Below are positions 19,789 to 53,772 of a stretch of DNA of 64,000 nt, in pieces. The position numbers and the translations under genes are program-made. This DNA is from Gammaproteobacteria bacterium (lineage in GTDB: Bacteria; Pseudomonadota; Gammaproteobacteria; Eutrophobiales; Eutrophobiaceae), in contig CBDCTH010000012.1 of NCBI GenBank assembly GCA_965222155.1, positions 1,632,001 to 1,696,000 on the forward strand. Direction: 5' to 3'. The notes beneath the pieces are model-generated. The model had not been told where the DNA came from. It did not search any database and was given only the letters and a program-made list of their open reading frames with translations. Within the stretch, counting starts at the first letter, position 1. Each line of letters opens with the position of its first letter.

Positions 19789-20328
19789 ATGTCGCTACGT
19801 CATGCCTTATTGGTATCCTTAAGCAGAAAACAAGGTACGGGTTATGAAATCACCTATGAATTTGACCGGGGGTTGGGGTTTTTCTGGCCGGCCAGTCACC
19901 AGCAAATCTATCAAGAACTCGGTAAAATGGCGACAGAGGGGCTGGTCGCGTTCAAACGGGTACAGCAGACCGATAAACCCCCTAAAAAAATTTACCGTTT
20001 AACCGAGAACGGGAAACAATCCCTGGTTGAATGGCTGGCCTCACCGGTAGACATGCCAGCGGTAAAAGACCCCCTGTTGATCAAACTATTTGCCGGGCAC
20101 CTGATACCAACACAAACACTGCTTGATGAAATTGACCGTCATATCGCTGACAACACTGAAATACTGTCACGATACCGCTCAATAGAGCAACAATATTTCA
20201 GCAACCCCGATGAACTGCCGGTCGCCAGCCAGTTCATGTACCTGACCCTGTTAAGGGGAATCTCGGCAAAAAAAGCGTGGCATACCTGGGCATTGCGAGT
20301 CAGGCGGTTTTTGGAAAACCGACCATAG
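19789..20328 (+). CDS. PadR family transcriptional regulator
   Basis: MSLRHALL...GFFWPASHQQIYQEL...KKIYRLTENG; divergent from the DUF2141 operon. Confidence 0.92.
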   Translation: MSLRHALLVSLSRKQGTGYEITYEFDRGLGFFWPASHQQIYQELGKMATEGLVAFKRVQQTDKPPKKIYRLTENGKQSLVEWLASPVDMPAVKDPLLIKLFAGHLIPTQTLLDEIDRHIADNTEILSRYRSIEQQYFSNPDELPVASQFMYLTLLRGISAKKAWHTWALRVRRFLENRP

Positions 20329-20745
20329 CCCGTATATCTCACCAATTCGCTTGTCATTAGCGGAAAGTTCCTTGCTGTCAATGAGATATCAGGATTATAG
20401 CATTCTGTTGCCATCACCCACTGCGCTGGATGCGCCCTCGCTTGTCTTTTTGATGCGCTCCATCCCTGGAGCGCCCCCTTCGGGCACTCTTCGAGTGTCC
20501 AAATCCATTCCAGATGGATTTGTGTCGCCAGCGGGCACGTGTTCATTGCGCCCATCCCTGGGCGCAACCCTGCGGGCGGCTGTCGCCGTGCAAATTGTCT
20601 ATCCTGACAATTTGTCCCTCAACCAGACAAATCTGCCTGGAGCAGATTTGGACATCCGAAGGATGCCCGCAGGGTGTGCGCCATGGAAGGCGCACATCAA
20701 AAATCCGGCGCGATCATCGCATCCATTGGTGAGATATACGGGCTA
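20326..20745. mobile_element. MITE-like element (420 bp) with perfect 21-bp TIRs, carrying three 74-nt modules
   Basis: TAGCCCGTATATCTCACCAAT at 20326-20346 and its exact reverse complement at 20725-20745. Internal sequence is homologous to 28975-29305 and 53526-53772. Confidence 0.8.
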
Positions 20746-21014
20746 GCAGGTTATTACCTGCCATCCCTGGCGCAGCGTCAATGGTTTCGATAACCCCCAG
20801 CCACAGCCTCCTTGTTGTGTCGTTCGCCGGGGAAAAGACACATTAAGTGTCCTTTTCCGGCTCACCCCTAAACCAGACAAATCTACTGAGAAATAATGGA
20901 ATAGTCTGTCCCGAAGTCAATCCTGAAATGACCGTCGGTGGGGATGGAATGTCCTGTTCCCAACCGGAGCCGCGTCCCAGAGTGTGCGGCCCGTGTAAGC
21001 CACCCACCGGGGTC

Positions 21015-24000
21015 TCAAATCCCCGCACCCCCCAGCCCGTAGCGCAGCCTCAGCATGAGGCCATGGTCCGGCGACTCGAACATACGCTCCCGGCGCGCAC
21101 TCTCCAGACTCAGAGTCAGCGCGCGGCCCAGCTCGAACACCCCGCCCAACCGGTAACGCCGCCCGCCCCCGTCCACTACCAGGCCCCCATAAGGCGTGAG
21201 CAGACCGCCCCCGGTCGCCAGCCCATACCCCAACTCGGTCTCCCACCGCACCCCGCGGGACGGTGACCCAGGCCCACTGCCCCCAACGTCCGCAGCCCCC
21301 TCCCAGAGCCGCTCAACACCACCGGCCCCGGCCTGCCCGGCAGCCAGGCCGTCCACCACGCCCCACCCCGGGCGCACACGGAACGACAGCCCACGCCCGT
21401 CCGGCCCCGGCGTCAGCACCACCAGTCCCCCGACGCCCCATTCCTCGATGTCCCCCGCGTGCGCCAGCAGCGCCCGGCCATAGCCTTCTACCCGCAGCCC
21501 CCGGGCCGGATCAAACCAGACCAGCCCGCCGCCCCACTCCAGCCCGCCGCCGGTCACGCCATCGCCGCCGTCATGGCGCAGCCCCAACGCCACCGAAGGC
21601 GTCACGGTCCCGCCCCCGGCCAGGCGCTGTGCATGCGAGCCCTCCAGCGCCAGGCGCAGCCGCCACACGTCCGTCGCCAGCCCCTCAATCAACCCCGCCG
21701 CCTCCACCTCATAGCGCGAGCCCCACCACGCACCCTTGAGATTCAACACCGTCGCCCCGCCGGCAACCAGACTGTTGCCTGCAAACAGCCGCACCCGACC
21801 GCCCAGCGCCGCCGTGGCCTGCTCGCTGTCCGCGGCCTGCCGGCCGGCCTCAGCGTCCCGGAGCCGCACCTCGCCTACGCCATAACCCAGGGCGCCCCAC
21901 AGACCTAACTCGGCCCGGGGGTGCCAGCCCACGTAGGGGTAGACACTCAGCAGCCGGCTTTCATGGGCGCCCTCTATGGGCCGGTAGCCGGCCGCACCCC
22001 GGTCGGTGTAGTCAAACTCGCCCTTGGCCCAGGACAGCGCCAGACCCGCCAGCAGGTCGTCCCGGAGCCGGGCGTCCAGCCCCAGGCGGGCGCTCAACAC
22101 GGCGCCGTCCCAGTGCATCGGGTCAGCGGCCCCTGCCCGGTCGTCATCCCCCCCGGACAGGCGCCGGTAATCGCCCCCGCCCCACAGGGTGATAGTGTTC
22201 AGCCCCCCGGCGGCGGGGCCCTCGTCCAGGCGCAGGGCAAAGGACGAGCGCCCCAGCACCTCTGCCCAGCGCCCCGCACGCAGGGACTCAGCCTGCCCCC
22301 ACAGCAGCCCCGCCAGAGTCTCGGCCGGTGTGGCTGCGCCCGGCGCCGCATCGGCACTGTCAATGCGCCGCTCTACGGCGTCCAGGGTACCGGCCACCAG
22401 GGCCCGGGACAATGCCGGCAGAATGGCCCGGTTGACCCGCTTAAGCCGCGCCCGGGCCACTGCCTCGGTCTCACCGGATACCGCCAGGACTACCTTTGTG
22501 CTGACACTCAGGCCCGCCGTGTCGCTGGCCACGACCGTAAAGGGGTAGGCCGGGTGGGTCTCACGGTCCAGCACAACACCCTGCCTGAGAGACAGGGCGT
22601 GGCCGGCCACCTCGAACACCGCCGCCTGCTCACCCTCCAGGGTGAAGCGGTGTTGGTCCCCGGCGTCCGGATCAGTGGCGGACAGCGTTGCCACCTGCAC
22701 CGGGCCGGCGCGGGTGTCGAGGTTCTCGGCGATAGCGCCGTCCGTGACCGGGGCTACCCAGGTGACAATCACTTCGGTCGGTGCCTCGTTGGCATCGGTC
22801 ACGGCAAGGGTCTGCGCAGCGCCGGTGACGCTGAGGCCGCCGCCATCCGTTGCAGTGAGCGTGAAGCCATAGCTTGACTGTGTCTCGTAATCCAGCCCCA
22901 CACCCTGCTTCAGGTAGAGCGCGGCGCCGGTAATCTCGAAGATGTCCGCGCCACTGAGGCTGAAGACGTGGCTGTCGTCGGCATCGGGGTCGACCGCGGA
23001 CAGCTCGGCCAGCTGCACCGGCCCGGCACTTGTGTCCACGTCCTCAGCGATGGCGCCGTCCGTGGCCGGGGGCACCCAGGTGACAATCACTTCGGTCGGC
23101 GCCTCGTTGGCATCGGTCACGGCAAGGGTCTGCTCAGTACCGGTGACGCTGAGACCACCGCTGTCGGTCGCAGTGAGCGTGAAACCATAGCTTGACTGTG
23201 TCTCGTAATCCAGCCCCACACCCTGCTTCAGGTAGAGCGCGGCGCCGGTAATCTCGAAGAGTGTCGTATCACTGAGGCTGAAGACGTGACTGTCGTCGGC
23301 ATCGGGGTCGACCGCGGACAGGTCGGCCAGATGCACCGGCCCGGCGCTCGTGTCCACGTCCTCGGTGATGGCGCCGTCCGTGGCCGGAGGCACCCAGGTG
23401 ACAATCACTTCGGTCGGCGCCTCGTTGGCATCGGTGACGGCAAGGGTCTGCGCAGCGCCGGTGACGCTGAGACCGCCACCATCCGTTGCAGTGAGTGTGA
23501 CGCCATGGCGTGGCTGCGTCTCGTAATCCAGTATCACACCCTGCTTCAGGTAGAGCGCCGTGCCGGTAATCTCGAAGAGTGTCGTATCACTGAGGCTGAA
23601 GACATGACTGTCGTCGGCATCCGGGTCGACCGCGGACAGCTCGGCCAACTGCACCGGCCCGGCGCTCGTGTCCACGTCCTCGGCAATGGCGCCGTCCGTG
23701 ACCGGGGGCACCCAGGTGACAATCACTTCGGTCGGCGCCTCGTTGGCATCGGTCACGGCAAGGGTCTGCTCAGTACCGGTGACGCTGAGACCACCGCTGT
23801 CGGTCGCAGTGAGTGTGACGCCATGGCGTGGTTGCGTCTCGTAATCCAGTATCACACCCTGCTTCAGGTAGAGCACCGCGCCGGTAATCTCGAAGAGGGC
23901 CGTATCACTGACGCTGAAGGTATGGCGACTGTCGTCCGGGTCGACCGCGGACAGCTCGGCCAGCTTCACCGGCCCGGCGTTTGTGTCCACGTCCTCGGCG

Positions 24001-27000
24001 ATGGCGCCGTCCGTGACCGGGGGCACCCAGGCGATAATCACTTCGGTGGGCGCCTCGTTGGCATCGGTCACGGCAAGGGTCTGCTCAGTGCCGGTGACGC
24101 TGAGACCGCCGCCATCCGTTGCAGTGAGGGTGACGCCATGGCGTGGCTGCGTCTCATAATCCAGCCCTACGCCCTGCTTCAGGTAGAGCGCGGCGCCGGT
24201 AATCTCGAAAATGTCCGCACCGCGGACGCTGAAGGTATGGTGACTGTCGTCCGGGTCGGTGGCGGACAGGTTCGCCAGCTTCACCGGCCCGGCGCGTGTG
24301 TCCACGTCCTCGGCGATGGCGCCGTCCGTGACCGGGGGCACCCAGGCGATAATCACTTCGGTGGGCGCCTCGTTGGCATCGGTCACGGCAAGGGTCTGCT
24401 CAGTGCCGGTGACGCTGAGACCGCCGCCATCCGTTGCAGTGAGGGTGAAGCCATGGCGTGGCTGCGTCTCGTAATCCAGTATCACACCCTGCTTCAGGTA
24501 GAGCACCGCGCCGGTAATCTCGAAGACAGTCGTATCACTGAGGCTGAAAACGTGACTGTCGTCGGCATCGGGGTCGACCGCGGACAGCTCGGCCAGCTTC
24601 ACCGGCCCGGCGTTTGTGTCCACGTCCTCGGCGATGGCGCCGTCCGTGACCGGGGGCACCCAGGCGATAATCACTTCGGTGGGCGCCTCGTTGGCATCGG
24701 TCACGGCAAGGGTCTGCTCAGTGCCGGTGACGCTGAGACCGCCGCCATCCGTTGCAGTGAGGGTGAAGCCATGGCGTGGCTGCGTCTCATAATCCAGCCC
24801 TACGCCCTGCTTCAGGTAGAGCGCGGCGCCGGTAATCTCGAAAATGTCCGCACCGCGGACGCTGAAGGTATGGTGACTGTCGTCCGGGTCGGTGGCGGAC
24901 AGGTTCGCCAGCTTCACCGGCCCGGCGCTCGTGTCCACGTCCTCGGCCATGGCGCCGTCCGTGGCCGGGGGGACCCAACTGACAATTACCCCGGTCGGCG
25001 CAGCATTGACGGGCTCAGGGGGAGTAACAGGGGCCGGGGGTTTGACTGTGAGCCTGATCGTGACGGTCTTGGGCTCGCTGCTGAGGCCACTCTCGCTGTT
25101 GGCGGCAATCAGGGTGTAGACGGTGCCCACACGGGTCTCGACCTTCAGCTGGCTGCCAGCGGGTAGTTTATCGCCCGGATCGATGAGGACGTTGTCCTGG
25201 TTATCGCGCAGAGACAGCACGTCCGTGTTCTTGCTCACCGTCCAACTCAGGGTCGACTTGCCGTCCTTGAGCGGCGTGGCCTCGAAGCGGATGATGTCAG
25301 GCGCACCGACAGTGGCCGTGGCGCTAGCCGACCAGGTGCTTAGTCCCTGAGCGTTCACGGCCTGCACCTGCACCTGGTAGGGCTGGCCGTTATCCAGACT
25401 CGTGATAGTGGTACTGGTACCCGTGCCGGTGAAGGGGTGGTCGGTCCATGAGTTGCCCGCATCGGCACTGTAGCGGACGTTGTAGCCCGTGATGGCCGAG
25501 CCGCCGTTGCTGCCGGGCGCTTTCCATGACACCTCAAGCTGACCGTTGCCGGGGGTGAGGGTCGGGGCCGCGGGCGCAGCAGGAGGGCCGACAGGGGTTG
25601 GGGGCACGACCGGCTCCGGCTCCGGTTCCCTGATCGTGACGGTGGCCGGCTCACTCTCCAGGAGGCTGTCGCCGTTGTAGGCGACAAGGGTGTAAACCGC
25701 GCCCGCGCGGGTCTCGACCTCCAACTCGTTGTCGGCGGGCAGCCCGTCGCCCCCCGGGTCGATCAGGACGTTGCCCTGGCCGTCGGCCAGACTCAGCACA
25801 TCCGTGTTGTCGCTCACCGTCCAGCTCAGGGTCGACTTGCCGTCCTTCAGCGGCGTGGCCTCGAAACGGATGATTTCCGGCGCCTTGTAGGGGAGGCTGG
25901 CCGCAGCTTCCTCCGACTCGGTGCCGGGGCCGTCGCCGTTCACCGCCCTGATCTGGAATACATAGGCCCTACCGTTGACGAGGTTCATTACCTTGTAGGT
26001 TGTGGTGGAGGGAGCGCTGCCCGGCATGTCGACCCAGGGCCCCCAGCCAGCGCCGCCACTGTACGGGGAGCGTCGGTACTGCCACTTGATGATGGAACCA
26101 TCGCTCGGGTCGCTCCACGACAAGGACACTTCCGCGTCGCTGGCGCTGGCGCTGAAGCCCGTGGGCTTGGCCGGGGCCGAGACCGAGACCGGCGTGGCCC
26201 GGACAATGTCCGACTCGGCGCCGGGGCCGTAGCGGTTCTTCGCCCTGACCCAAAAACCATATTCTGCGCCGTTTTCGAGGTTCTCCACCGTATCGGTCGT
26301 AGTTAAGGCATCGCTGTTCGGTATATCGACCCAGCTCTCCTGTTCGCCACCGGCTTTCCCCTTGCGCACCTGCCACCCGGTGATGGTGGCATCGCCCAGG
26401 TCGTCCCACGACAGGATGACCTCGCCGTCTCCGGGCTGCGCCCGCAAACCCGTGGGCCGGGCCGGGGCGCTGCCCTGAACCGGCGTGCCGGTGACTTCCG
26501 AATTATCACCGTTACCGTGAGCGTTCACGGCCCTGACACGAAAGGCATAGTCCACGCCGTTGTTGAGGTTCTCCACCCTATAGGTCGTAGTTGAGGCAAC
26601 AACGCTGTTCGGTATATCGACCCAATTATCCCAATCACCATTGACTGCCCCCTTGCGATACTGCCACTTGGTGATGGAAGTATCGCTTGGGTTATCCCAC
26701 GACAGGGTAACTTCGCCGTCTCCGGGCGCCGCCCGCAAACCCGTGGGCCGGGCCGGCGCATCAGCCGAAACCGGTTCAGTGAAGACGATAATCGAAGGCC
26801 TCCCGGGGCCGTGGATGTTGACCGCCCGCACCCGGAAAATATACTCCATACCGTTCTGGAGGCCGCTTATCCTGAAGGTCATGGTCTGATAAGAGCTGTC
26901 CGGCACGTCGGCCCAGTTCTCCCATTGGATGGTGCCTTGCTCCGTCGGCGTACCGCGCCGGTATTGCCAGTTGGTGATCGAGGGGTCGTTCACGGCGCTC

Positions 27001-28580
27001 CAGGACAGGACGACCAGACCGTCGCCGGCCACGGCGCTGAAGTCCAATGGCTCGGCCGGGGCCGAGGACGCGACAGGGGTGGCGGAAACGTCGGGCGAAT
27101 GCTGGCCGGCGCCGTGGCTGTTCACCGCCCTGACATGAAAGCTGTGCTCCACGCCGTTGTCGAGGCCGGTCACGCTGTGCGTCGTGGTTAAAGCGACGCT
27201 GACCGGTATGTTGACCCACCCCCCCCAAACGCCGTGGGTTACCCCCTGCCGGTACTGCCACCGGGTAATGGAGGGGTCGCCCGGGTTGTCCCACGACAAC
27301 CTGACCTCAGTATCGCCCGGCGTGGCGCTGACACCGGTGGGCTGAGCCGGCGCCAGGGCCGAGATCGGCGTGGCGAACACCCTCGCTGCCGTACTCTCGC
27401 CGTCTGCGTTCACCGCCCTGATCTCGAAGACATATATTCGATCGTTGGTCAGGCCGGTTATCGTGTACGATGAATTGGCGGCGTCGCCTGGCGGTATGGC
27501 TTGCCAACTTCCGAAAGACTGGCCGGCTTCGGCCCTCCGCATCTGCCACTCGGTAATGGTGGCGTCGCCCGGGTCGTCCCACGACAATAGAACCTGGGCG
27601 TCGCCCGGCGTGGCGCTGAAACCGGTGGGCTCGGCCGGCGCCGAGGGCGAGACCGGCGTAGCCCGCACGGTGTTCGACTTGGCGCCGAAGCCGTGGGCGT
27701 TCACCGCCCTGACCTGGAAGTAATAGGGCGTACCGTTGGGGAAGCCCGTAAGCCCGACGCCTGTCCAATCGTTGCCGGGTAAATCTATCCAGGCCTGCCA
27801 TGTGCTGCCGGCGCGATATCGGATCTGCCACTTGGTGATGGTGGCATCGCCCGGGTTGTCCCAGGACAGGGTAACTTCGCCGTCTCCGGGCGTCACTCGA
27901 AAACTCGTGGGCCGGGCCGGCGCCAAGGGCGAGTGCGGCCCCTGGAAGACTGTCGAATAGTTGCCGGGGCCGTGGGTGTTGAACGCCCGCACCCGGAAAG
28001 CATAATCCTTTGTATTGTCGAGGCCCCCTACCCTGTGGCTCGTGGTGGCGGCGCCGCTGGGCACGATATCGGTCCAACTTCCCCAAGCCTCACTCGATAC
28101 TCCCATGCGGAACTGCCACTTGGTGATGGTGGTATCGCCCGGGTTATCCCAGGACAGGGTAACTTCGCCGTCTCCGGGCGCCGCCCGCAAACCCGTGGGC
28201 CGGGCCGGCGCCCGGACCGAGATCGGCGTGGCGAAAACCATCGCTGCTGTACTCTCGCCGTCTACGTTCACCGCCCTGATCTCGAAGGCGTATCGTTGAC
28301 CGTTGGTCAGGCCCGTCACCGTGTACGATGAATTGGCGGCGTCGCTTGATGGTATGGTTTGCCAATTTTCCCAAACTCCACCGACTGCCGCCTTCCGGAC
28401 CTGCCATTCGGTAATGGAGGGGTCGCTCGGGTCTTGCCATGACAGGACAACCTCGGCGTCCCCGAGCGCCGCCTGTAAACCCGTGGGCTGGGCCGGAACG
28501 GCGGCATCCGCTATTCCCGGCGCCATCAGCAACCACGCGAAGAGAAGCGCAAGCGCCTGACCGCAAACCCGCGATCTCAT
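21015..28580 (-). CDS. Giant autotransporter adhesin: 10 FN3, 2 Ig-like repeats, 8 cadherin domains, C-terminal beta-barrel
   Basis: Signal peptide; P..PTG....GD.EV.LSW...Y.F.VRAVN repeats; DPD/LDYE/NEAP cadherin motifs; barrel region with WGGGDYRRL and ELGYG. Visibly more GC-rich than its flanks. Confidence 0.9.
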   Translation of the reverse strand: MRSRVCGQALALLFAWLLMAPGIADAAVPAQPTGLQAALGDAEVVLSWQDPSDPSITEWQVRKAAVGGVWENWQTIPSSDAANSSYTVTGLTNGQRYAFEIRAVNVDGESTAAMVFATPISVRAPARPTGLRAAPGDGEVTLSWDNPGDTTITKWQFRMGVSSEAWGSWTDIVPSGAATTSHRVGGLDNTKDYAFRVRAFNTHGPGNYSTVFQGPHSPLAPARPTSFRVTPGDGEVTLSWDNPGDATITKWQIRYRAGSTWQAWIDLPGNDWTGVGLTGFPNGTPYYFQVRAVNAHGFGAKSNTVRATPVSPSAPAEPTGFSATPGDAQVLLSWDDPGDATITEWQMRRAEAGQSFGSWQAIPPGDAANSSYTITGLTNDRIYVFEIRAVNADGESTAARVFATPISALAPAQPTGVSATPGDTEVRLSWDNPGDPSITRWQYRQGVTHGVWGGWVNIPVSVALTTTHSVTGLDNGVEHSFHVRAVNSHGAGQHSPDVSATPVASSAPAEPLDFSAVAGDGLVVLSWSAVNDPSITNWQYRRGTPTEQGTIQWENWADVPDSSYQTMTFRISGLQNGMEYIFRVRAVNIHGPGRPSIIVFTEPVSADAPARPTGLRAAPGDGEVTLSWDNPSDTSITKWQYRKGAVNGDWDNWVDIPNSVVASTTTYRVENLNNGVDYAFRVRAVNAHGNGDNSEVTGTPVQGSAPARPTGLRAQPGDGEVILSWDDLGDATITGWQVRKGKAGGEQESWVDIPNSDALTTTDTVENLENGAEYGFWVRAKNRYGPGAESDIVRATPVSVSAPAKPTGFSASASDAEVSLSWSDPSDGSIIKWQYRRSPYSGGAGWGPWVDMPGSAPSTTTYKVMNLVNGRAYVFQIRAVNGDGPGTESEEAAASLPYKAPEIIRFEATPLKDGKSTLSWTVSDNTDVLSLADGQGNVLIDPGGDGLPADNELEVETRAGAVYTLVAYNGDSLLESEPATVTIREPEPEPVVPPTPVGPPAAPAAPTLTPGNGQLEVSWKAPGSNGGSAITGYNVRYSADAGNSWTDHPFTGTGTSTTITSLDNGQPYQVQVQAVNAQGLSTWSASATATVGAPDIIRFEATPLKDGKSTLSWTVSKNTDVLSLRDNQDNVLIDPGDKLPAGSQLKVETRVGTVYTLIAANSESGLSSEPKTVTIRLTVKPPAPVTPPEPVNAAPTGVIVSWVPPATDGAMAEDVDTSAGPVKLANLSATDPDDSHHTFSVRGADIFEITGAALYLKQGVGLDYETQPRHGFTLTATDGGGLSVTGTEQTLAVTDANEAPTEVIIAWVPPVTDGAIAEDVDTNAGPVKLAELSAVDPDADDSHVFSLSDTTVFEITGAVLYLKQGVILDYETQPRHGFTLTATDGGGLSVTGTEQTLAVTDANEAPTEVIIAWVPPVTDGAIAEDVDTRAGPVKLANLSATDPDDSHHTFSVRGADIFEITGAALYLKQGVGLDYETQPRHGVTLTATDGGGLSVTGTEQTLAVTDANEAPTEVIIAWVPPVTDGAIAEDVDTNAGPVKLAELSAVDPDDSRHTFSVSDTALFEITGAVLYLKQGVILDYETQPRHGVTLTATDSGGLSVTGTEQTLAVTDANEAPTEVIVTWVPPVTDGAIAEDVDTSAGPVQLAELSAVDPDADDSHVFSLSDTTLFEITGTALYLKQGVILDYETQPRHGVTLTATDGGGLSVTGAAQTLAVTDANEAPTEVIVTWVPPATDGAITEDVDTSAGPVHLADLSAVDPDADDSHVFSLSDTTLFEITGAALYLKQGVGLDYETQSSYGFTLTATDSGGLSVTGTEQTLAVTDANEAPTEVIVTWVPPATDGAIAEDVDTSAGPVQLAELSAVDPDADDSHVFSLSGADIFEITGAALYLKQGVGLDYETQSSYGFTLTATDGGGLSVTGAAQTLAVTDANEAPTEVIVTWVAPVTDGAIAENLDTRAGPVQVATLSATDPDAGDQHRFTLEGEQAAVFEVAGHALSLRQGVVLDRETHPAYPFTVVASDTAGLSVSTKVVLAVSGETEAVARARLKRVNRAILPALSRALVAGTLDAVERRIDSADAAPGAATPAETLAGLLWGQAESLRAGRWAEVLGRSSFALRLDEGPAAGGLNTITLWGGGDYRRLSGGDDDRAGAADPMHWDGAVLSARLGLDARLRDDLLAGLALSWAKGEFDYTDRGAAGYRPIEGAHESRLLSVYPYVGWHPRAELGLWGALGYGVGEVRLRDAEAGRQAADSEQATAALGGRVRLFAGNSLVAGGATVLNLKGAWWGSRYEVEAAGLIEGLATDVWRLRLALEGSHAQRLAGGGTVTPSVALGLRHDGGDGVTGGGLEWGGGLVWFDPARGLRVEGYGRALLAHAGDIEEWGVGGLVVLTPGPDGRGLSFRVRPGWGVVDGLAAGQAGAGGVERLWEGAADVGGSGPGSPSRGVRWETELGYGLATGGGLLTPYGGLVVDGGGRRYRLGGVFELGRALTLSLESARRERMFESPDHGLMLRLRYGLGGAGI
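22470..25007 (-). repeat. Intragenic tandem array of eight 315-318 bp cadherin-coding repeats
   Basis: Seven near-identical 105-106 aa units plus one divergent unit. Confidence 0.9.
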
Positions 28581-28783
28581 TGGGGGGGGGGGGGGGGGGG
28601 GGTGAAAGAGGATTGACGCGGGAATCCGCGCAGCCGACGCGTCAGCGAGTCAGCACTGGCGCGGGTGGAGTTGGCCACTCCGAACCCTCCTCCGTAACAA
28701 AGGTCGCTACACGCCAAGCGACCGGTTATGTGCATTGCGATCCATCGGTTAATCATGGTTGCGAACGTTACCTGTTGCTTCAT
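28577..28783 (-). CDS. Upstream ORF, probably the out-of-frame N-terminal extension of the adhesin
   Basis: 68 aa ending TPPPPPPQ. Its TGA overlaps the adhesin ATG (ATGA). Confidence 0.5.
   Translation of the reverse strand: MKQQVTFATMINRWIAMHITGRLACSDLCYGGGFGVANSTRASADSLTRRLRGFPRQSSFTPPPPPPQ
28582..28602 (-). repeat. Homopolymer G21 (C21 on the coding strand), probable contingency tract
   Basis: Counted directly. It lies 1 nt upstream of the adhesin ATG and inside ORF 28577-28783. Confidence 0.85.
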
Positions 28784-28864
28784 ACCCTGTCAACCCCGGT
28801 TGTCCGGGTTCTGTTGTCCGGGTTCCAGGTGCTCCCGCTAAATCGAGGTCAATACAGAAGACGG

Positions 28865-28890
28865 GGGGGACAGATTTAAATCTGTCCCCC
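28865..28890. repeat. Perfect palindrome GGGGACAGATTTAAATCTGTCCCC (REP-like); second copy at 40575-40598
   Basis: Seen directly at both loci. Confidence 0.8.
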
Positions 28891-28974
28891 AGGAGTCACG
28901 GGGCCTGTTTCCCTGGGAGGGAGGGCGTCTCGCCCTCCACGAGGGCAGGATGCCCTCGAGCCCGGGAGTTAGCG

Positions 28975-29305
28975 GGAGCACGTGCCCGCTGGCGGCACAA
29001 ATCCATCTGGAATGGATTTGGACACTCGAAGAGTGCCCGAAGGGGGCGCTCCAAAGCCTGCCCCCCTGCTTACAACCGCAGGGGGGCAGGCTCTGTATGG
29101 AGTTGAGCAGGGGGATGGAGCGCATCAAAAAGACAAGCGAGACAAATCGGCAGGATAGCCGATTTGCACGGCAACAGCCGCCCGCAGGGTTGCGTACATG
29201 GATGTGCGCAATGAACGCATCAAGCGCAGTATATAATAGCAACAAAGTGATATTATCCTGATACTCGTTGACAGCAAAGAGTTTTCCGCTAACGGCAAGC
29301 GAAAC
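28975..29305 (+). mobile_element. Truncated copy of the MITE family (no TIRs) with two 74-nt modules
   Basis: Shares GCACGTGCCCGCTGGCGGC, AAAAAGACAAGCGAG, CGCATCAAGCGCAGT and TTGACAGCAA...TTTCCGCTAA with the other copies. Confidence 0.75.
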
Positions 29306-29563
29306 GAACGGATCGATCTGCTTGCCCTTGGCTGGCTCGGTGATGACAGCCGCCTCTCTCATTACCACCGGCGCCTCGATCACCACGACGCTGACTGGCA
29401 ACGATACTTCGAGCACGCCGGTAAGATGATCGACTCATATACCGACCATCGCTACGAGATCGGCCTTGCTGCCCACTGGTAGGCTGGGCTTGGTTGTTTG
29501 GAAGTCAGCCGCCGGGCTTTGTCGTAAGGTAAAACTTTCTATTCAAACGTTGCGCGCATTCTA

Positions 29564-53525: not shown

Positions 53526-53772
53526 TAACCCGGATTTCTCACCAGGTGATGCGATGATCGCGCAGGATTTTTGCCGCCAGCGGGTGCCTGCGACCGAAAG
53601 CATAGCCGTAGCTCTGGTTAAGGGAGCACGTGCCCGCTGGCGGCAAAAAGACAAGCGAGGGCGCATCAAGCGCAGTCTATAATGATGGGATATTGAGAAT
53701 TTTACCATAACTTACTGACAGCACATTGACGTTTCCGATAGCAACCAGCGATCTGGTGAGAAATCCGGGTTA
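53526..53772. mobile_element. MITE-like element, module-free form (247 bp)
   Basis: TIR TAACCCGGATTTCTCACCAG/CTGGTGAGAAATCCGGGTTA, flanked by AACCCTT on both sides (53519-53525 and 53773-53779). Confidence 0.82.

Follow-up and report, generated by a model that had tools for sequence, protein, structure and literature searches.

A dispersed four-hairpin module of about 74 nucleotides is probably a once-mobile unit and the core of RtT elements

Five copies of a short, structured unit are nested inside a larger repeat in a 64,000-nt stretch of contig C12 from a gammaproteobacterial genome (G000); this stretch is referred to below as the window. We think it reasonably probable that these units are insertion modules of approximately 74 nt with four hairpins, that they were once mobile, and that the same module forms the core of RtT elements when it lies in the T-loop of a duplicated tRNA 3' end. 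RtT RNA has been annotated for decades in proteobacterial genomes with its origin and function unexplained, and should its core prove to be a portable module that inserts with defined ends at a defined target step, then the origin of RtT becomes directly testable. Compared with an earlier sequence-only reading of the window, what is new is that the family is not local, that in low-copy genomes it is linked to tRNA genes and RtT, and that its multiplication in this genus is passive.

The first three modules, m1 (20450..20523, minus strand), m2 (20542..20615, minus) and m3 (20627..20700, plus), reside in a composite copy of the host repeat at 20420..20745 on the minus strand (C12:1652420-1652745). 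The other two, m4 (28997..29128, plus) and m5 (29142..29215, plus), reside in a partial and degraded host-repeat copy at 28974..29320 (plus), the right end of which is approximate as it has no intact terminal repeat. All five had been placed correctly and on the correct strand by the sequence-only reading, which was also right that m1, m2, m3 and m5 are each exactly 74 nt and that m4 contains an extra insert of about 58 nt; the 132 nt of m4 correspond to 74 nt plus this insert, which interrupts the loop of hairpin 4. Modules m1, m3 and m4 are of type A, containing ATTTGGAC and ending in the tail ATCAA, and m2 and m5 are of type B, containing ATTTGCAC and ending in ATGAA. ACAAAT..ATTTG, GCCCGNAGGG, the GGA loops, the AT(C/G)AA tail and four variants of stem 1 are present as originally described, and the number of hairpins has been corrected from three to four, because CCC-GNA-GGG is itself a mini-hairpin. 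Window copies score between E = 2e-21 and 1e-17 with covariance model R1 (4.3e-21 for m1 and 2.3e-21 for m3), and these scores, together with a test of covariation, place the window modules far beyond chance expectation.

Modules start with an invariant ACAAAT. Their ends are fixed, 5'-AC...AA-3', they have one polarity, and they lack both inverted ends and target duplications. In a MAFFT alignment that was not fitted to the structure, 93.4% of cells are paired, whereas shuffles give 76.9%. For covariation the score is 0.364 versus 0.096 in shuffles, a level that none of 500 shuffles reaches and that bears out the earlier claim of covarying stems; slid controls score no higher than 0.077. While the stems covary, the unpaired motifs stay constant, with GGA in loop 1 and in loop 4 (81 of 83 rows each) and GNA as the loop of the third hairpin (82 of 83). 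The nucleotide in column 27, which lies beside a hairpin foot, and the third-last nucleotide of the element covary, and the resulting 27-77 pair is CG in 52 rows, GC in 26, GU in 2 and other in 3 of the 83. Sense and antisense strands fold equally well (-0.33 +/- 2.4 kcal/mol across 119 unique modules), G-U makes up 3% of pairs on the sense strand and 5% on the antisense strand, and one stem-1 loop occurs inverted, as AGGACT and AGTCCT. Given this equal folding, the low number of G-U pairs and the inverted loop, the module probably acts as a folded single strand, with DNA more likely than RNA. Neither strand gives a coding signal, the three sense frames being free of stops in 81, 64 and 76 of the 119 modules versus 85, 68 and 111 for antisense. 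Alternatively, it could be the binding of RNA or protein, and not transposition, that has kept the GGA loops and other unpaired motifs constant in different phyla.

The host repeat is approximately 245 nt long and ends in (TA)GCCCGGATTTCTCACCAG, with inverted ends and TA flanks both present. One of the 26 near-full empty copies in the genome is located in the window (53526..53772, plus). In the host repeat, m1 occupies the site GGCGGC/AA/AAAGAC, m4 a site of the same type, m2 the site GAGGG/AG/CACGTG and m5 the site GCGAG/GG/CGCATC, where the strokes enclose the dinucleotide replaced. The proposal that each module replaces 2 nt agrees with the AG, GG and AA found in the empty repeat opposite m2, m5 and m1/m4, respectively, with the reservation that a clean 72-nt insertion ahead of AA/AG, followed by change, could be an alternative. 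When filled and empty sites were tabulated, as had been suggested, every empty counterpart found had exactly 2 nt in place of the module at seven types of site, the dinucleotide being AA or AG, with a single GG and a single AT. Some filled AG sites retain ..AG, and copies within AATGACG hairpins in genome G041 end in AG. Among 82 collapsed sites, the nucleotide preceding the module (position -1) is a G at 57 and a C at 21, and the best reading of these data is entry at S/AR steps without duplication. Module m3 has its left flank from the site CAACCAG/AG/CTACGG and its right flank from GGCGGC/AA/AAATCC, indicating that the repeat segment between two module sites of the same sense has been deleted. 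The module itself is not built like a DDE-type MITE, as ACAAAT.. and ..ATSAA are not inverted copies of one another and the flanks show no duplication. Contigs from four public sequencing runs covering window positions 20000-29900 contain joints, for example from 20451 to 20526, with 74 nt skipped and 2 other letters in between, and these were rejected as evidence of alleles or excision because the region is repetitive and in contigs paralogous empty copies look alike. No public RNA run is listed as containing the stretch.

The module family is not confined to this genome and is very widespread. Scanning R1 over this and related genomes, a check proposed at the outset, gave 116 matches in G000, where a strict pattern finds 78 copies, as well as matches in 21 of the 22 other genomes of the genus. 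At E <= 1e-5, a sample of 150 other families of the class contains 66 that are R1-positive, a count that includes the unpublished positives G068 and G170 and becomes 64 of 148 if both are left out. At least 110 stretches are present in named records from Gamma- and Zetaproteobacteria, Desulfobacterota and Magnetococcales, and the 80 loci listed from these records contain 95 full modules. Modules are found outside the MITE positions, in repeats, ORFs and tRNA fragments. IS5-like transposase genes, dRS3-like hairpins, an integrase-like ORF, tRNA fragments, phage-like contigs and a vapBC junction, from taxa that are unrelated, all contain the module with the same ends. Inside genes and tRNA fragments their orientation is always sense. 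Only 9 stretches come from the viral contigs of the collection, all in ordinary intergenic or gene-start settings, and among these contigs there is no sign of phage carriage or transport of the module. A literature search on the motifs (including a 14-mer), nested small repeats, T-loop insertions and small dispersed repeats, supplements aside, retrieved no description of the module.

The usual position of the module in low-copy genomes is the T-loop of a duplicated tRNA 3' end that has an intact tRNA next to it; of 10 genomes with 1-3 copies, 7 have their best copy in a tRNA context. All 17 tRNA-like loci carry the module in tRNA sense, 15 of them in the T-loop, one in the D-loop and one in the anticodon loop. 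The module-bearing duplicates, often with a terminator, are 30-120 nt from intact tRNA genes (Ser, Arg, Thr, Gln, Met, Pro, Tyr and Lys), and a conserved (A/G)TGAGAA(C/G) loop in a T-arm-like hairpin is found 5' of the module in taxa as far apart as E. coli and its distant counterparts. When the module is removed in silico from locus L102, ARAGORN calls a tRNA-Ser. A module in the T-loop of a tRNA 3'-end duplicate probably corresponds to the RtT RNA of Rfam (RF00391), known from the rttR/tyrT repeats of E. coli. With the RtT model, locus L050 scores 45.9 bits (gathering score 45), L276 31.9 and L278 28.9, and 21 of 25 RtT-positive genomes in the class are also R1-positive. In E. coli, where rttR denotes the 178-bp repeats of the tyrT operon, the unit reads ..GGTTCG, then a 70-nt four-hairpin core of the form AC..AA, then TCC... 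All three E. coli tyrT repeats below tyrV are matched by R2 (E = 0.0027), in their 3' half only. R1 detects only the 9-nt mini-hairpin CCCGAAGGG in E. coli tyrT and misses the cores; homology with E. coli RtT therefore rests on bridging loci and shared architecture. The module and the RtT core have the same order of parts (hairpin, hairpin, CCC-GNA-GGG, hairpin with tandem G-A, short tail) and the same borders (AC start and AA end, between G57 and T60 of the T-loop), and relatives of the module that are linked to tRNAs are scored as RtT by its model (L050). A preprint (10.1101/2024.07.17.603846) describes increased mobilome coverage at tyrT/rttR in E. coli. The similar units beside tRNA genes that the sequence-only reading had mentioned are, to judge from the RtT model scores and the E. 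coli layout, RtT elements.

Window copies nevertheless differ from RtT in several respects. They have no tRNA-like flanks, to which approximately 45% of the RtT model is devoted. Their setting is a MITE-like repeat and not the neighborhood of a tRNA operon, and they belong to a dispersed family that is also nested in ORFs. In addition, they have a long hairpin 1 whose base, ACAAAT/ATTTG, is invariant and whose GGA loop is missing from E. coli cores. A match to a described Rfam family, which the sequence-only reading had named as grounds for refuting it, is thus half present: the tRNA-linked relatives match RtT, whereas the window modules are below threshold, with no RtT match in the window even at E <= 10 and none at E <= 1 in the whole of G000 (115 candidates scored). 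In G000, a distance of 244 nt is the shortest between a module and a tRNA, and there is no T-loop-type flank anywhere in that genome. In the passages of PMC4986893 and PMC7542023 concerned with it, RtT is described as an sRNA to which no function is assigned, and not as mobile DNA.

Under the explanation that we favor, the module is or was a non-autonomous mobile element, and its favored target would be the G57/A58A59 step of T-loop-like sequence. It would insert as a folded single strand, of DNA rather than RNA, the two ends may be brought together by a 2-bp helix of S27-A28 with T76-S77, and the terminal AA of the module would overlap the two target nucleotides. Entry into the TA-flanked repeat of this genome, at six positions, would be old, and multiplication would now occur only when the host repeat is moved by that repeat's own transposase. 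At least one flank matches the host repeat in 66 of the 78 G000 copies, and identical copies have common host-repeat flanks in 9 of 9 cases in G002 and 6 of 6 in G010. Since identical copies share host-repeat flanks, amplification in this genome and genus is passive. No recent module-level insertion was caught, and in G000 no identical modules in unrelated flanks were confirmed; in G041, near-identical modules do have different flanks. The earlier proposal of an independently mobile unit has therefore to be divided: a discrete, structured, tRNA-sized unit with precise ends, filled and empty sites and many unrelated contexts is present, but current independent mobility in this genome is not supported, as identical copies share their flanks. 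G000, G006 and G018 have a copy at one orthologous site, a vapB-vapC junction, and this copy is decaying: it has lost 12 nt, gained an insertion of 30 nt and has broken stems, as a selfish element would. Replication-strand counts in contig C12 show no bias (17 versus 20), but little can be read from this, given an irregular skew curve and copies that are carried by the host repeat.

The mobilizer originally suggested was an HUH/RAYT-type enzyme. According to this explanation, which we now judge unlikely, the module is a REP/REPIN-like or IS200/IS605-derived element moved as single-stranded DNA in trans by a Y1 HUH transposase (RAYT/TnpA). Like the elements of REP/REPIN-RAYT systems, modules are short, abundant, structured, strand-specific and without duplication, and there are copies in inverted pairs, A(-) and B(+) being 11 nt apart. 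Like IS200/IS605 and PATEs, they have hairpins near both ends, whose stems are Watson-Crick only, and neither inverted ends nor duplication, and the base in column 27 could pair with the 3' end in a manner resembling the guide/cleavage-site pairing of IS608. In type B, this base also matches position -1 (G in 35 of 39), but in type A it does so in only 17 of 40, and no target tetra- or pentanucleotide is conserved 5' of the module, only the S at -1. Passages in PMC6006769 describe in-frame REP copies within genes. A REP, however, is one palindrome of 20-40 nt, whereas the module packs four hairpins into 74 nt, paired modules are of different subtypes that each fold alone, and there is neither a GT[AG]G (or CGTC) foot nor an association with RAYT. 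Replacement of two target nucleotides at AG, GG and AT sites is also unlike peel-and-paste transposition. Weak Y1_Tnp-like ORFs of 228-320 aa were found in G000 and in 5 of 5 other carriers tested, but Y1_Tnp itself was not found in G003, G005, G008, G001 or G011, which have 26, 93, 15, 5 and 4 module matches, respectively. G000 has Y1_Tnp loci at C12:2623939, C12:1985766 and C10:21320, with no module within 1 kb of any of the three and the nearest R1 match approximately 4 kb away. No tnpA was found between module halves, and candidates for an autonomous form (halves split by a gene, a stem-4 partner within 6 kb, or a 5' half without a 3' half) all proved to be degenerate full modules. The check for co-occurrence of RAYT/TnpA thus found no RAYT/IS200-type gene that tracks the modules; IS110-type genes do not track them either, and a search for RVT_1 in five genomes of the genus, including three that are module-rich, found it in none. 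Because none of these three kinds of gene tracks the modules, the argument for mobility is that of their sequence anatomy, and the inserting enzyme is probably not encoded by most carriers.

We also see little probability that the module is a functional RNA domain, namely an RtT-type sRNA released from tRNA or repeat transcripts that perhaps binds a GGA-recognizing protein such as CsrA/RsmA, with its spread a by-product of host repeats or of retro-insertion. RtT RNAs are expressed and processed, according to Northern signals in PMC4986893 and to passages in PMC3300014. The GGA in two hairpin loops and the consistent sense orientation in genes and tRNA fragments fit such a role, yet E. coli RtT cores have no GGA loops, and the sense strand has no fold advantage and few G-U pairs. 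Rfam returns sub-threshold matches to RsmY, sX7 and Ysr224 on the GGA hairpin; the modules do not reach the threshold for CsrA/RsmA-binding sRNAs of the RsmY/Z clan, the RsmY match being 11.5 bits against a gathering score of 57. The vapBC junction copy decays, and retro-insertion is opposed by the failure to find RVT_1 in the genus genomes tested.

It is very unlikely that the module is the crossover of tiny tRNA-targeting integrative elements served in trans by a tyrosine integrase, with the dispersed copies being off-target events. The duplicates near intact tRNA genes, which are typical island targets, and the conserved (A/G)TGAGAA(C/G) loop 5' of the module would suit it, and one copy is in frame inside an ORF that resembles a P4-type integrase, as judged from reading the translation and not from a family scan. 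Against this, no integrase is linked to the units, dispersed copies have no tRNA sequence, the overlap is 2 nt and not 6-8 nt, and insertion into a redundant tandem tRNA copy followed by decay explains the duplicates equally, with L102 as such an intermediate. That modules are not separate elements but variable internal segments of the subfamilies of one repeat, shuffled by recombination, is hardly credible, for although most G000 copies touch the host repeat, site occupancy is common to several species and m3 shows recombination between modules, this is already contradicted by the same module with the same ends in unrelated contexts and taxa.

Returning to the insertion module, an extension that we put forward tentatively, and regard as rather doubtful, is that RtT elements, including the E. 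coli tyrT/rttR repeats, are fossils of a structured transposable element of 72-74 nt that homed to the T-loop at G57/A58 with a 2-nt overlap, by means of an enzyme that belongs to none of the Y1 HUH, IS110 and reverse-transcriptase families and may be a host function. If true, bacteria would have a mobile element of a distinct class, one from which sRNA genes, insertions in proteins and composite repeats originate. If the core of RtT is a portable insertion module, as favored above, this already provides an example of an element the size of a tRNA that inserts into other repeats, breaks up redundant copies of tRNAs and lengthens proteins by 24 codons. It would also give a name to a very common unannotated repeat (66 of 150 sampled families of one class, the two unpublished positives included), and annotators could trace to it many structured blocks between genes, as well as in-frame insertions of 72 nt, that now have no explanation.

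Two other groups of very small repeats are similar in habit. The cyanobacterial small dispersed repeats of Elhai and colleagues (2008) are reported to insert into each other as well as into MITEs, with no duplication, and the Rickettsia palindromic elements of Ogata and colleagues (2000) are said to lie in frame within protein genes. Both differ from the module in sequence, size and taxa, and neither is known to be linked to the tRNA T-loop. The insert in m4 (29054..29111, plus; 58 nt, its borders uncertain by a few G) is a member of another family, that of the small hairpin elements of the form GCCTGCCCC..GGGG, and has two levels of its own, a 29-nt form and an inner hairpin of approximately 27 nt.

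All five copies of the module lie where the sequence-only reading had placed them, at 20450-20523(-), 20542-20615(-), 20627-20700(+), 28997-29128(+) and 29142-29215(+) (m1 to m5, respectively). As it had claimed, m1, m2, m3 and m5 are each 74 nt long and m4 carries an extra insert; this is 58 nt (29054-29111) and is located inside the loop of the last hairpin. Each module is predicted to fold into four successive hairpins: a 9-bp stem with an invariant CAAAT/ATTTG base, a second stem of 4-5 bp capped by a GNA or GNNA loop, the mini-hairpin CCC-GNA-GGG, and a last stem of 8-9 bp whose loop contains GGA. A lone A lies 5' of the hairpins and AT(C/G)AA 3' of them. The modules fall into two subtypes, type A (ATTTGGAC, tail ATCAA) and type B (ATTTGCAC, tail ATGAA), the latter with one loop base more. 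The unpaired motifs are nearly fixed: among 83 aligned modules, GGA is present in loop 1 of 81 and in loop 4 of 81, and the loop of hairpin 3 is GNA in 82.

The proposed covariation of the stems holds in this alignment, which was made with MAFFT, was not fitted to structure, and combines four window copies with 79 from named records of other taxa. The score was 0.364 versus 0.096 after shuffling, with none of 500 shuffles as high, and pairing cells made up 93.4% versus 76.9% in the shuffles. Both sides vary in 16 of the 27 stem pairs, and controls with partners slid by 1-3 columns scored at most 0.077. Pair counts support an additional 2-bp helix, S27 and A28 (after hairpin 1) with T76 and S77 (in the tail), that encloses hairpins 2-4 in a junction and draws the two ends of the unit together. 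Column pair 27-77 is CG in 52 modules, GC in 26, GU in 2 and other in 3; because its two states track the two subtypes, they may mirror one old split and not repeated compensation.

The module is genuine and occurs very widely. With a covariance model based on the four intact window copies (R1), matches were found in 6 of 16 other families in an initial draw, and at E <= 1e-5 in 66 of 150 other families of the class (64 of 148 without the unpublished genomes G068 and G170), in most cases with 1-30 copies per family. Named genomes, scanned with an exact pattern, gave at least 110 module stretches, and among the matches listed R1 confirmed 95 full modules within 80 loci. Carriers among these matches include Methylococcaceae, Rhodanobacter, Luteimonas, Microbulbifer, Marinobacterium, Thiohalophilus, Ectothiorhodospira, HdN1, MAGs of Legionellaceae, Coxiellaceae and Francisellaceae, Mariprofundus, Desulfobacterota MAGs and Magnetococcales. 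On one viral contig (L209), a 21-nt copy of hairpin 4 and tail sits directly 5' of a full module, and the duplicated last hairpin flanks the 5' two-thirds of the element on both sides.

The window's 4.55-Mb genome holds 78 copies by strict pattern and 116 R1 matches, and R1 also matched in 21 of 22 other genomes of the genus. The MITE-like host repeat (~245 nt, inverted ends (TA)GCCCGGATTTCTCACCAG, ~131 BLAST loci, 26 near-full empty copies) flanks 42 of the 78 copies on both sides, 24 on one and 12 on neither. Identical copies have common host-repeat flanks, 9 of 9 in one genome (G002) at one site of one repeat and 6 of 6 in another (G010) within another host repeat; module amplification in the genus is therefore now passive. 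The copy m3 shows deletion through recombination between two modules. A frequent arrangement across the genome is a type A(-) module facing a type B(+) module head to head over an 11-nt spacer (CCCTCAACCAG; 20616-20626 in the window), a REPIN-like doublet whose members are two different subtypes.

The suggested replacement of 2 nt by the module was upheld at the host repeat's six module positions, where empty copies carry AG, AG, AA, AA, GG and AT; the net gain per insertion is therefore 72 nt. An IS5-like transposase gene carries a type B module in frame at four places (contig C12, 36531, 2186713, 3196553 and 3368962), with a net 72 nt added and no stop, reading TATG-[module]-TT(T/C)GGG versus TATG-AA-TTCGGG in the uninterrupted genes, of which there are at least 10 copies. 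The interrupted gene has itself spread. Module flanks from relatives, when mapped to the window's genome, lay exactly 2 nt apart at 7 site types, and besides filled sites no other gap was seen. After collapsing similar flanks (82 sites), the base 5' of the module is G at 57 and C at 21, with C nearly absent from type B (2 of 39, versus 17 of 40 in type A). The replaced pair is mostly AA or AG, the module's last two bases are nearly always AA, including at AG, GG and AT sites, and a minority of filled AG sites retain AG. We interpret this as the element's 3' end overlapping the target by 2 nt, an overlap that would be resolved in either direction; alternatively, 72 nt may have been cleanly inserted before AA, with change afterwards.

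Elsewhere the module recurs in three contexts: tRNA-like loops, start codons or ORFs, and small palindromes. The first comprises 15 loci in the T-loop (..GGTTCG[module]TCC..), one in the D-loop and one in the anticodon loop, and at each of them the module follows the tRNA sense. The sequence it interrupts is a duplicate or a partial copy, with an intact tRNA 30-120 nt away (by ARAGORN, Ser in six cases and Gln, Arg, Thr and Met in one each), and removal of the module in silico from one locus (L102) let ARAGORN call a full tRNA-Ser. In genomes with 1-3 copies, the best copy is in a tRNA context in 7 of 10. Within palindromes the module occupies the 3' arm, as in ACTGGATTCCCGCCTGCGCGGG[module]TGACG at 12 of 26 sites in one genome (G041); these resemble the Neisseria ATTCCC-N8-GGGAAT repeats. 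In the ORF context, modules lie in frame, either directly after the start codon or farther inside, as in the IS5-like transposase, a P4-type-integrase-like ORF (by reading) and a vapB-vapC junction. At the latter (C12, 748225; L176 and L177), the insertion falls precisely within the ATGA stop/start overlap, with the vapB TGA retained and the vapC start shifted to a downstream ATG. The module occupies this one site in three species, with flanks 75-80% identical, and it is decaying there, with a 12-nt deletion (G018), a 30-nt insertion (G006) and broken stems. Its structure is therefore without selection at that locus, so selection for something that the copies must do to get copied best accounts for their covariation.

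The HUH/RAYT-type mobilizer proposed from the sequence did not find support, as Y1_Tnp turned up in 9 of 15 genomes of the genus, with none found in three others (G003, G005 and G008). DEDD_Tnp_IS110 occurs in 1 of 5 genomes tested and does not track modules, and RVT_1 in none of 5, leaving no tracking enzyme among these three candidates. Weak Y1_Tnp-like ORFs are present in all 5 tested carriers from other taxa. One genome (G045, reached via the tRNA-linked locus L050) shows an unusual expansion of 57 Y1_Tnp-like matches in ORFs of ~250-320 aa (L268, L273 and other loci). A search for a split, gene-carrying module form found none. The mechanism that we infer is that the module would act as a folded single strand, its two ends held together, and would enter behind S, overlapping the target by 2 nt at AR. 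Folding is as good for the antisense strand as for the sense strand, G-U pairs are rare on both (88 in sense and 157 in antisense, of ~2,900 pairs), a stem-1 loop is also present in inverted form, and the loops of hairpins 2 and 3 are of the C-GNA-G kind, known for very stable DNA mini-hairpins. Together these favor DNA as the acting strand.

The closest known relative of the module is RtT RNA (Rfam RF00391), described in excerpts of published work as an expressed sRNA near tRNA genes with unknown function (PMC4986893, PMC7542023, PMC8092127, PMC3318445, PMC3300014). The Rfam search suggested by the sequence-only reading gave a divided answer: tRNA-linked relatives match RtT (L050 at 45.9 bits against a gathering score of 45, L276 at 31.9 and L278 at 28.9) and the window's modules do not. 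Since RtT finds nothing in the window's genome, the window's modules are "naked" cores, related to RtT and not members by Rfam's test. At E <= 1e-3, RtT matched in 25 of 151 class-sample genomes (5 above threshold), 21 of them also R1-positive. In E. coli K-12 there are 16 RtT matches, of which 13 exceed the threshold; they lie in the tyrT, proK, lysT-valT, valU-lysV, serX and serV-argV regions. Here the order is a T-arm-like hairpin (loop ATGAGAA), ..GGTTCG, a 70-nt core, TCC and a tRNA 3' end with CCA, a plan common to the tRNA-linked module units. The core starts with AC, followed by two hairpins, CCC-GAA-GGG, a hairpin with tandem G-A and a final AA; it is without the GGA loops, whereas those of the module are kept across phyla. 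R1 did not find the tyrT repeats below tyrV, and a broader covariance model (R2) matched all three in their 3' half (E = 0.0027). From E. coli to distant taxa, the T-arm-like hairpin 5' of the module in RtT units has an (A/G)TGAGAA(C/G) loop, and its stem matches the local tRNA; the inverted ends of the host repeat include GGTGAGAAATCC. The dispersed, nested insertion-like form, the target rule and passive spread within repeats were not found in the literature searched. The ychS and tpr annotations fall wholly within the tyrT RtT repeats (E. coli K-12 1286709-1287236), and may not be genes but reading frames that the repeat opens.

The window also contains a group I intron (RF00028, 55.2 bits) at 34263-34606(-), inside a 23S rRNA gene (32485-36657) whose operon includes two tRNAs and a 5S gene. 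A second family of tiny hairpin elements, which outnumbers the module, starts GCYTGCCCC and ends GGGG; it has 352 seeds in the whole genome and occurs in the window at 29054-29111 and ~28860-28975. Its inner hairpin is found in both orientations, the elements take nested forms of 29 and 56-58 nt, and they sit in module loops and in the host repeat, as well as within a module of a Coxiellaceae MAG (L116).
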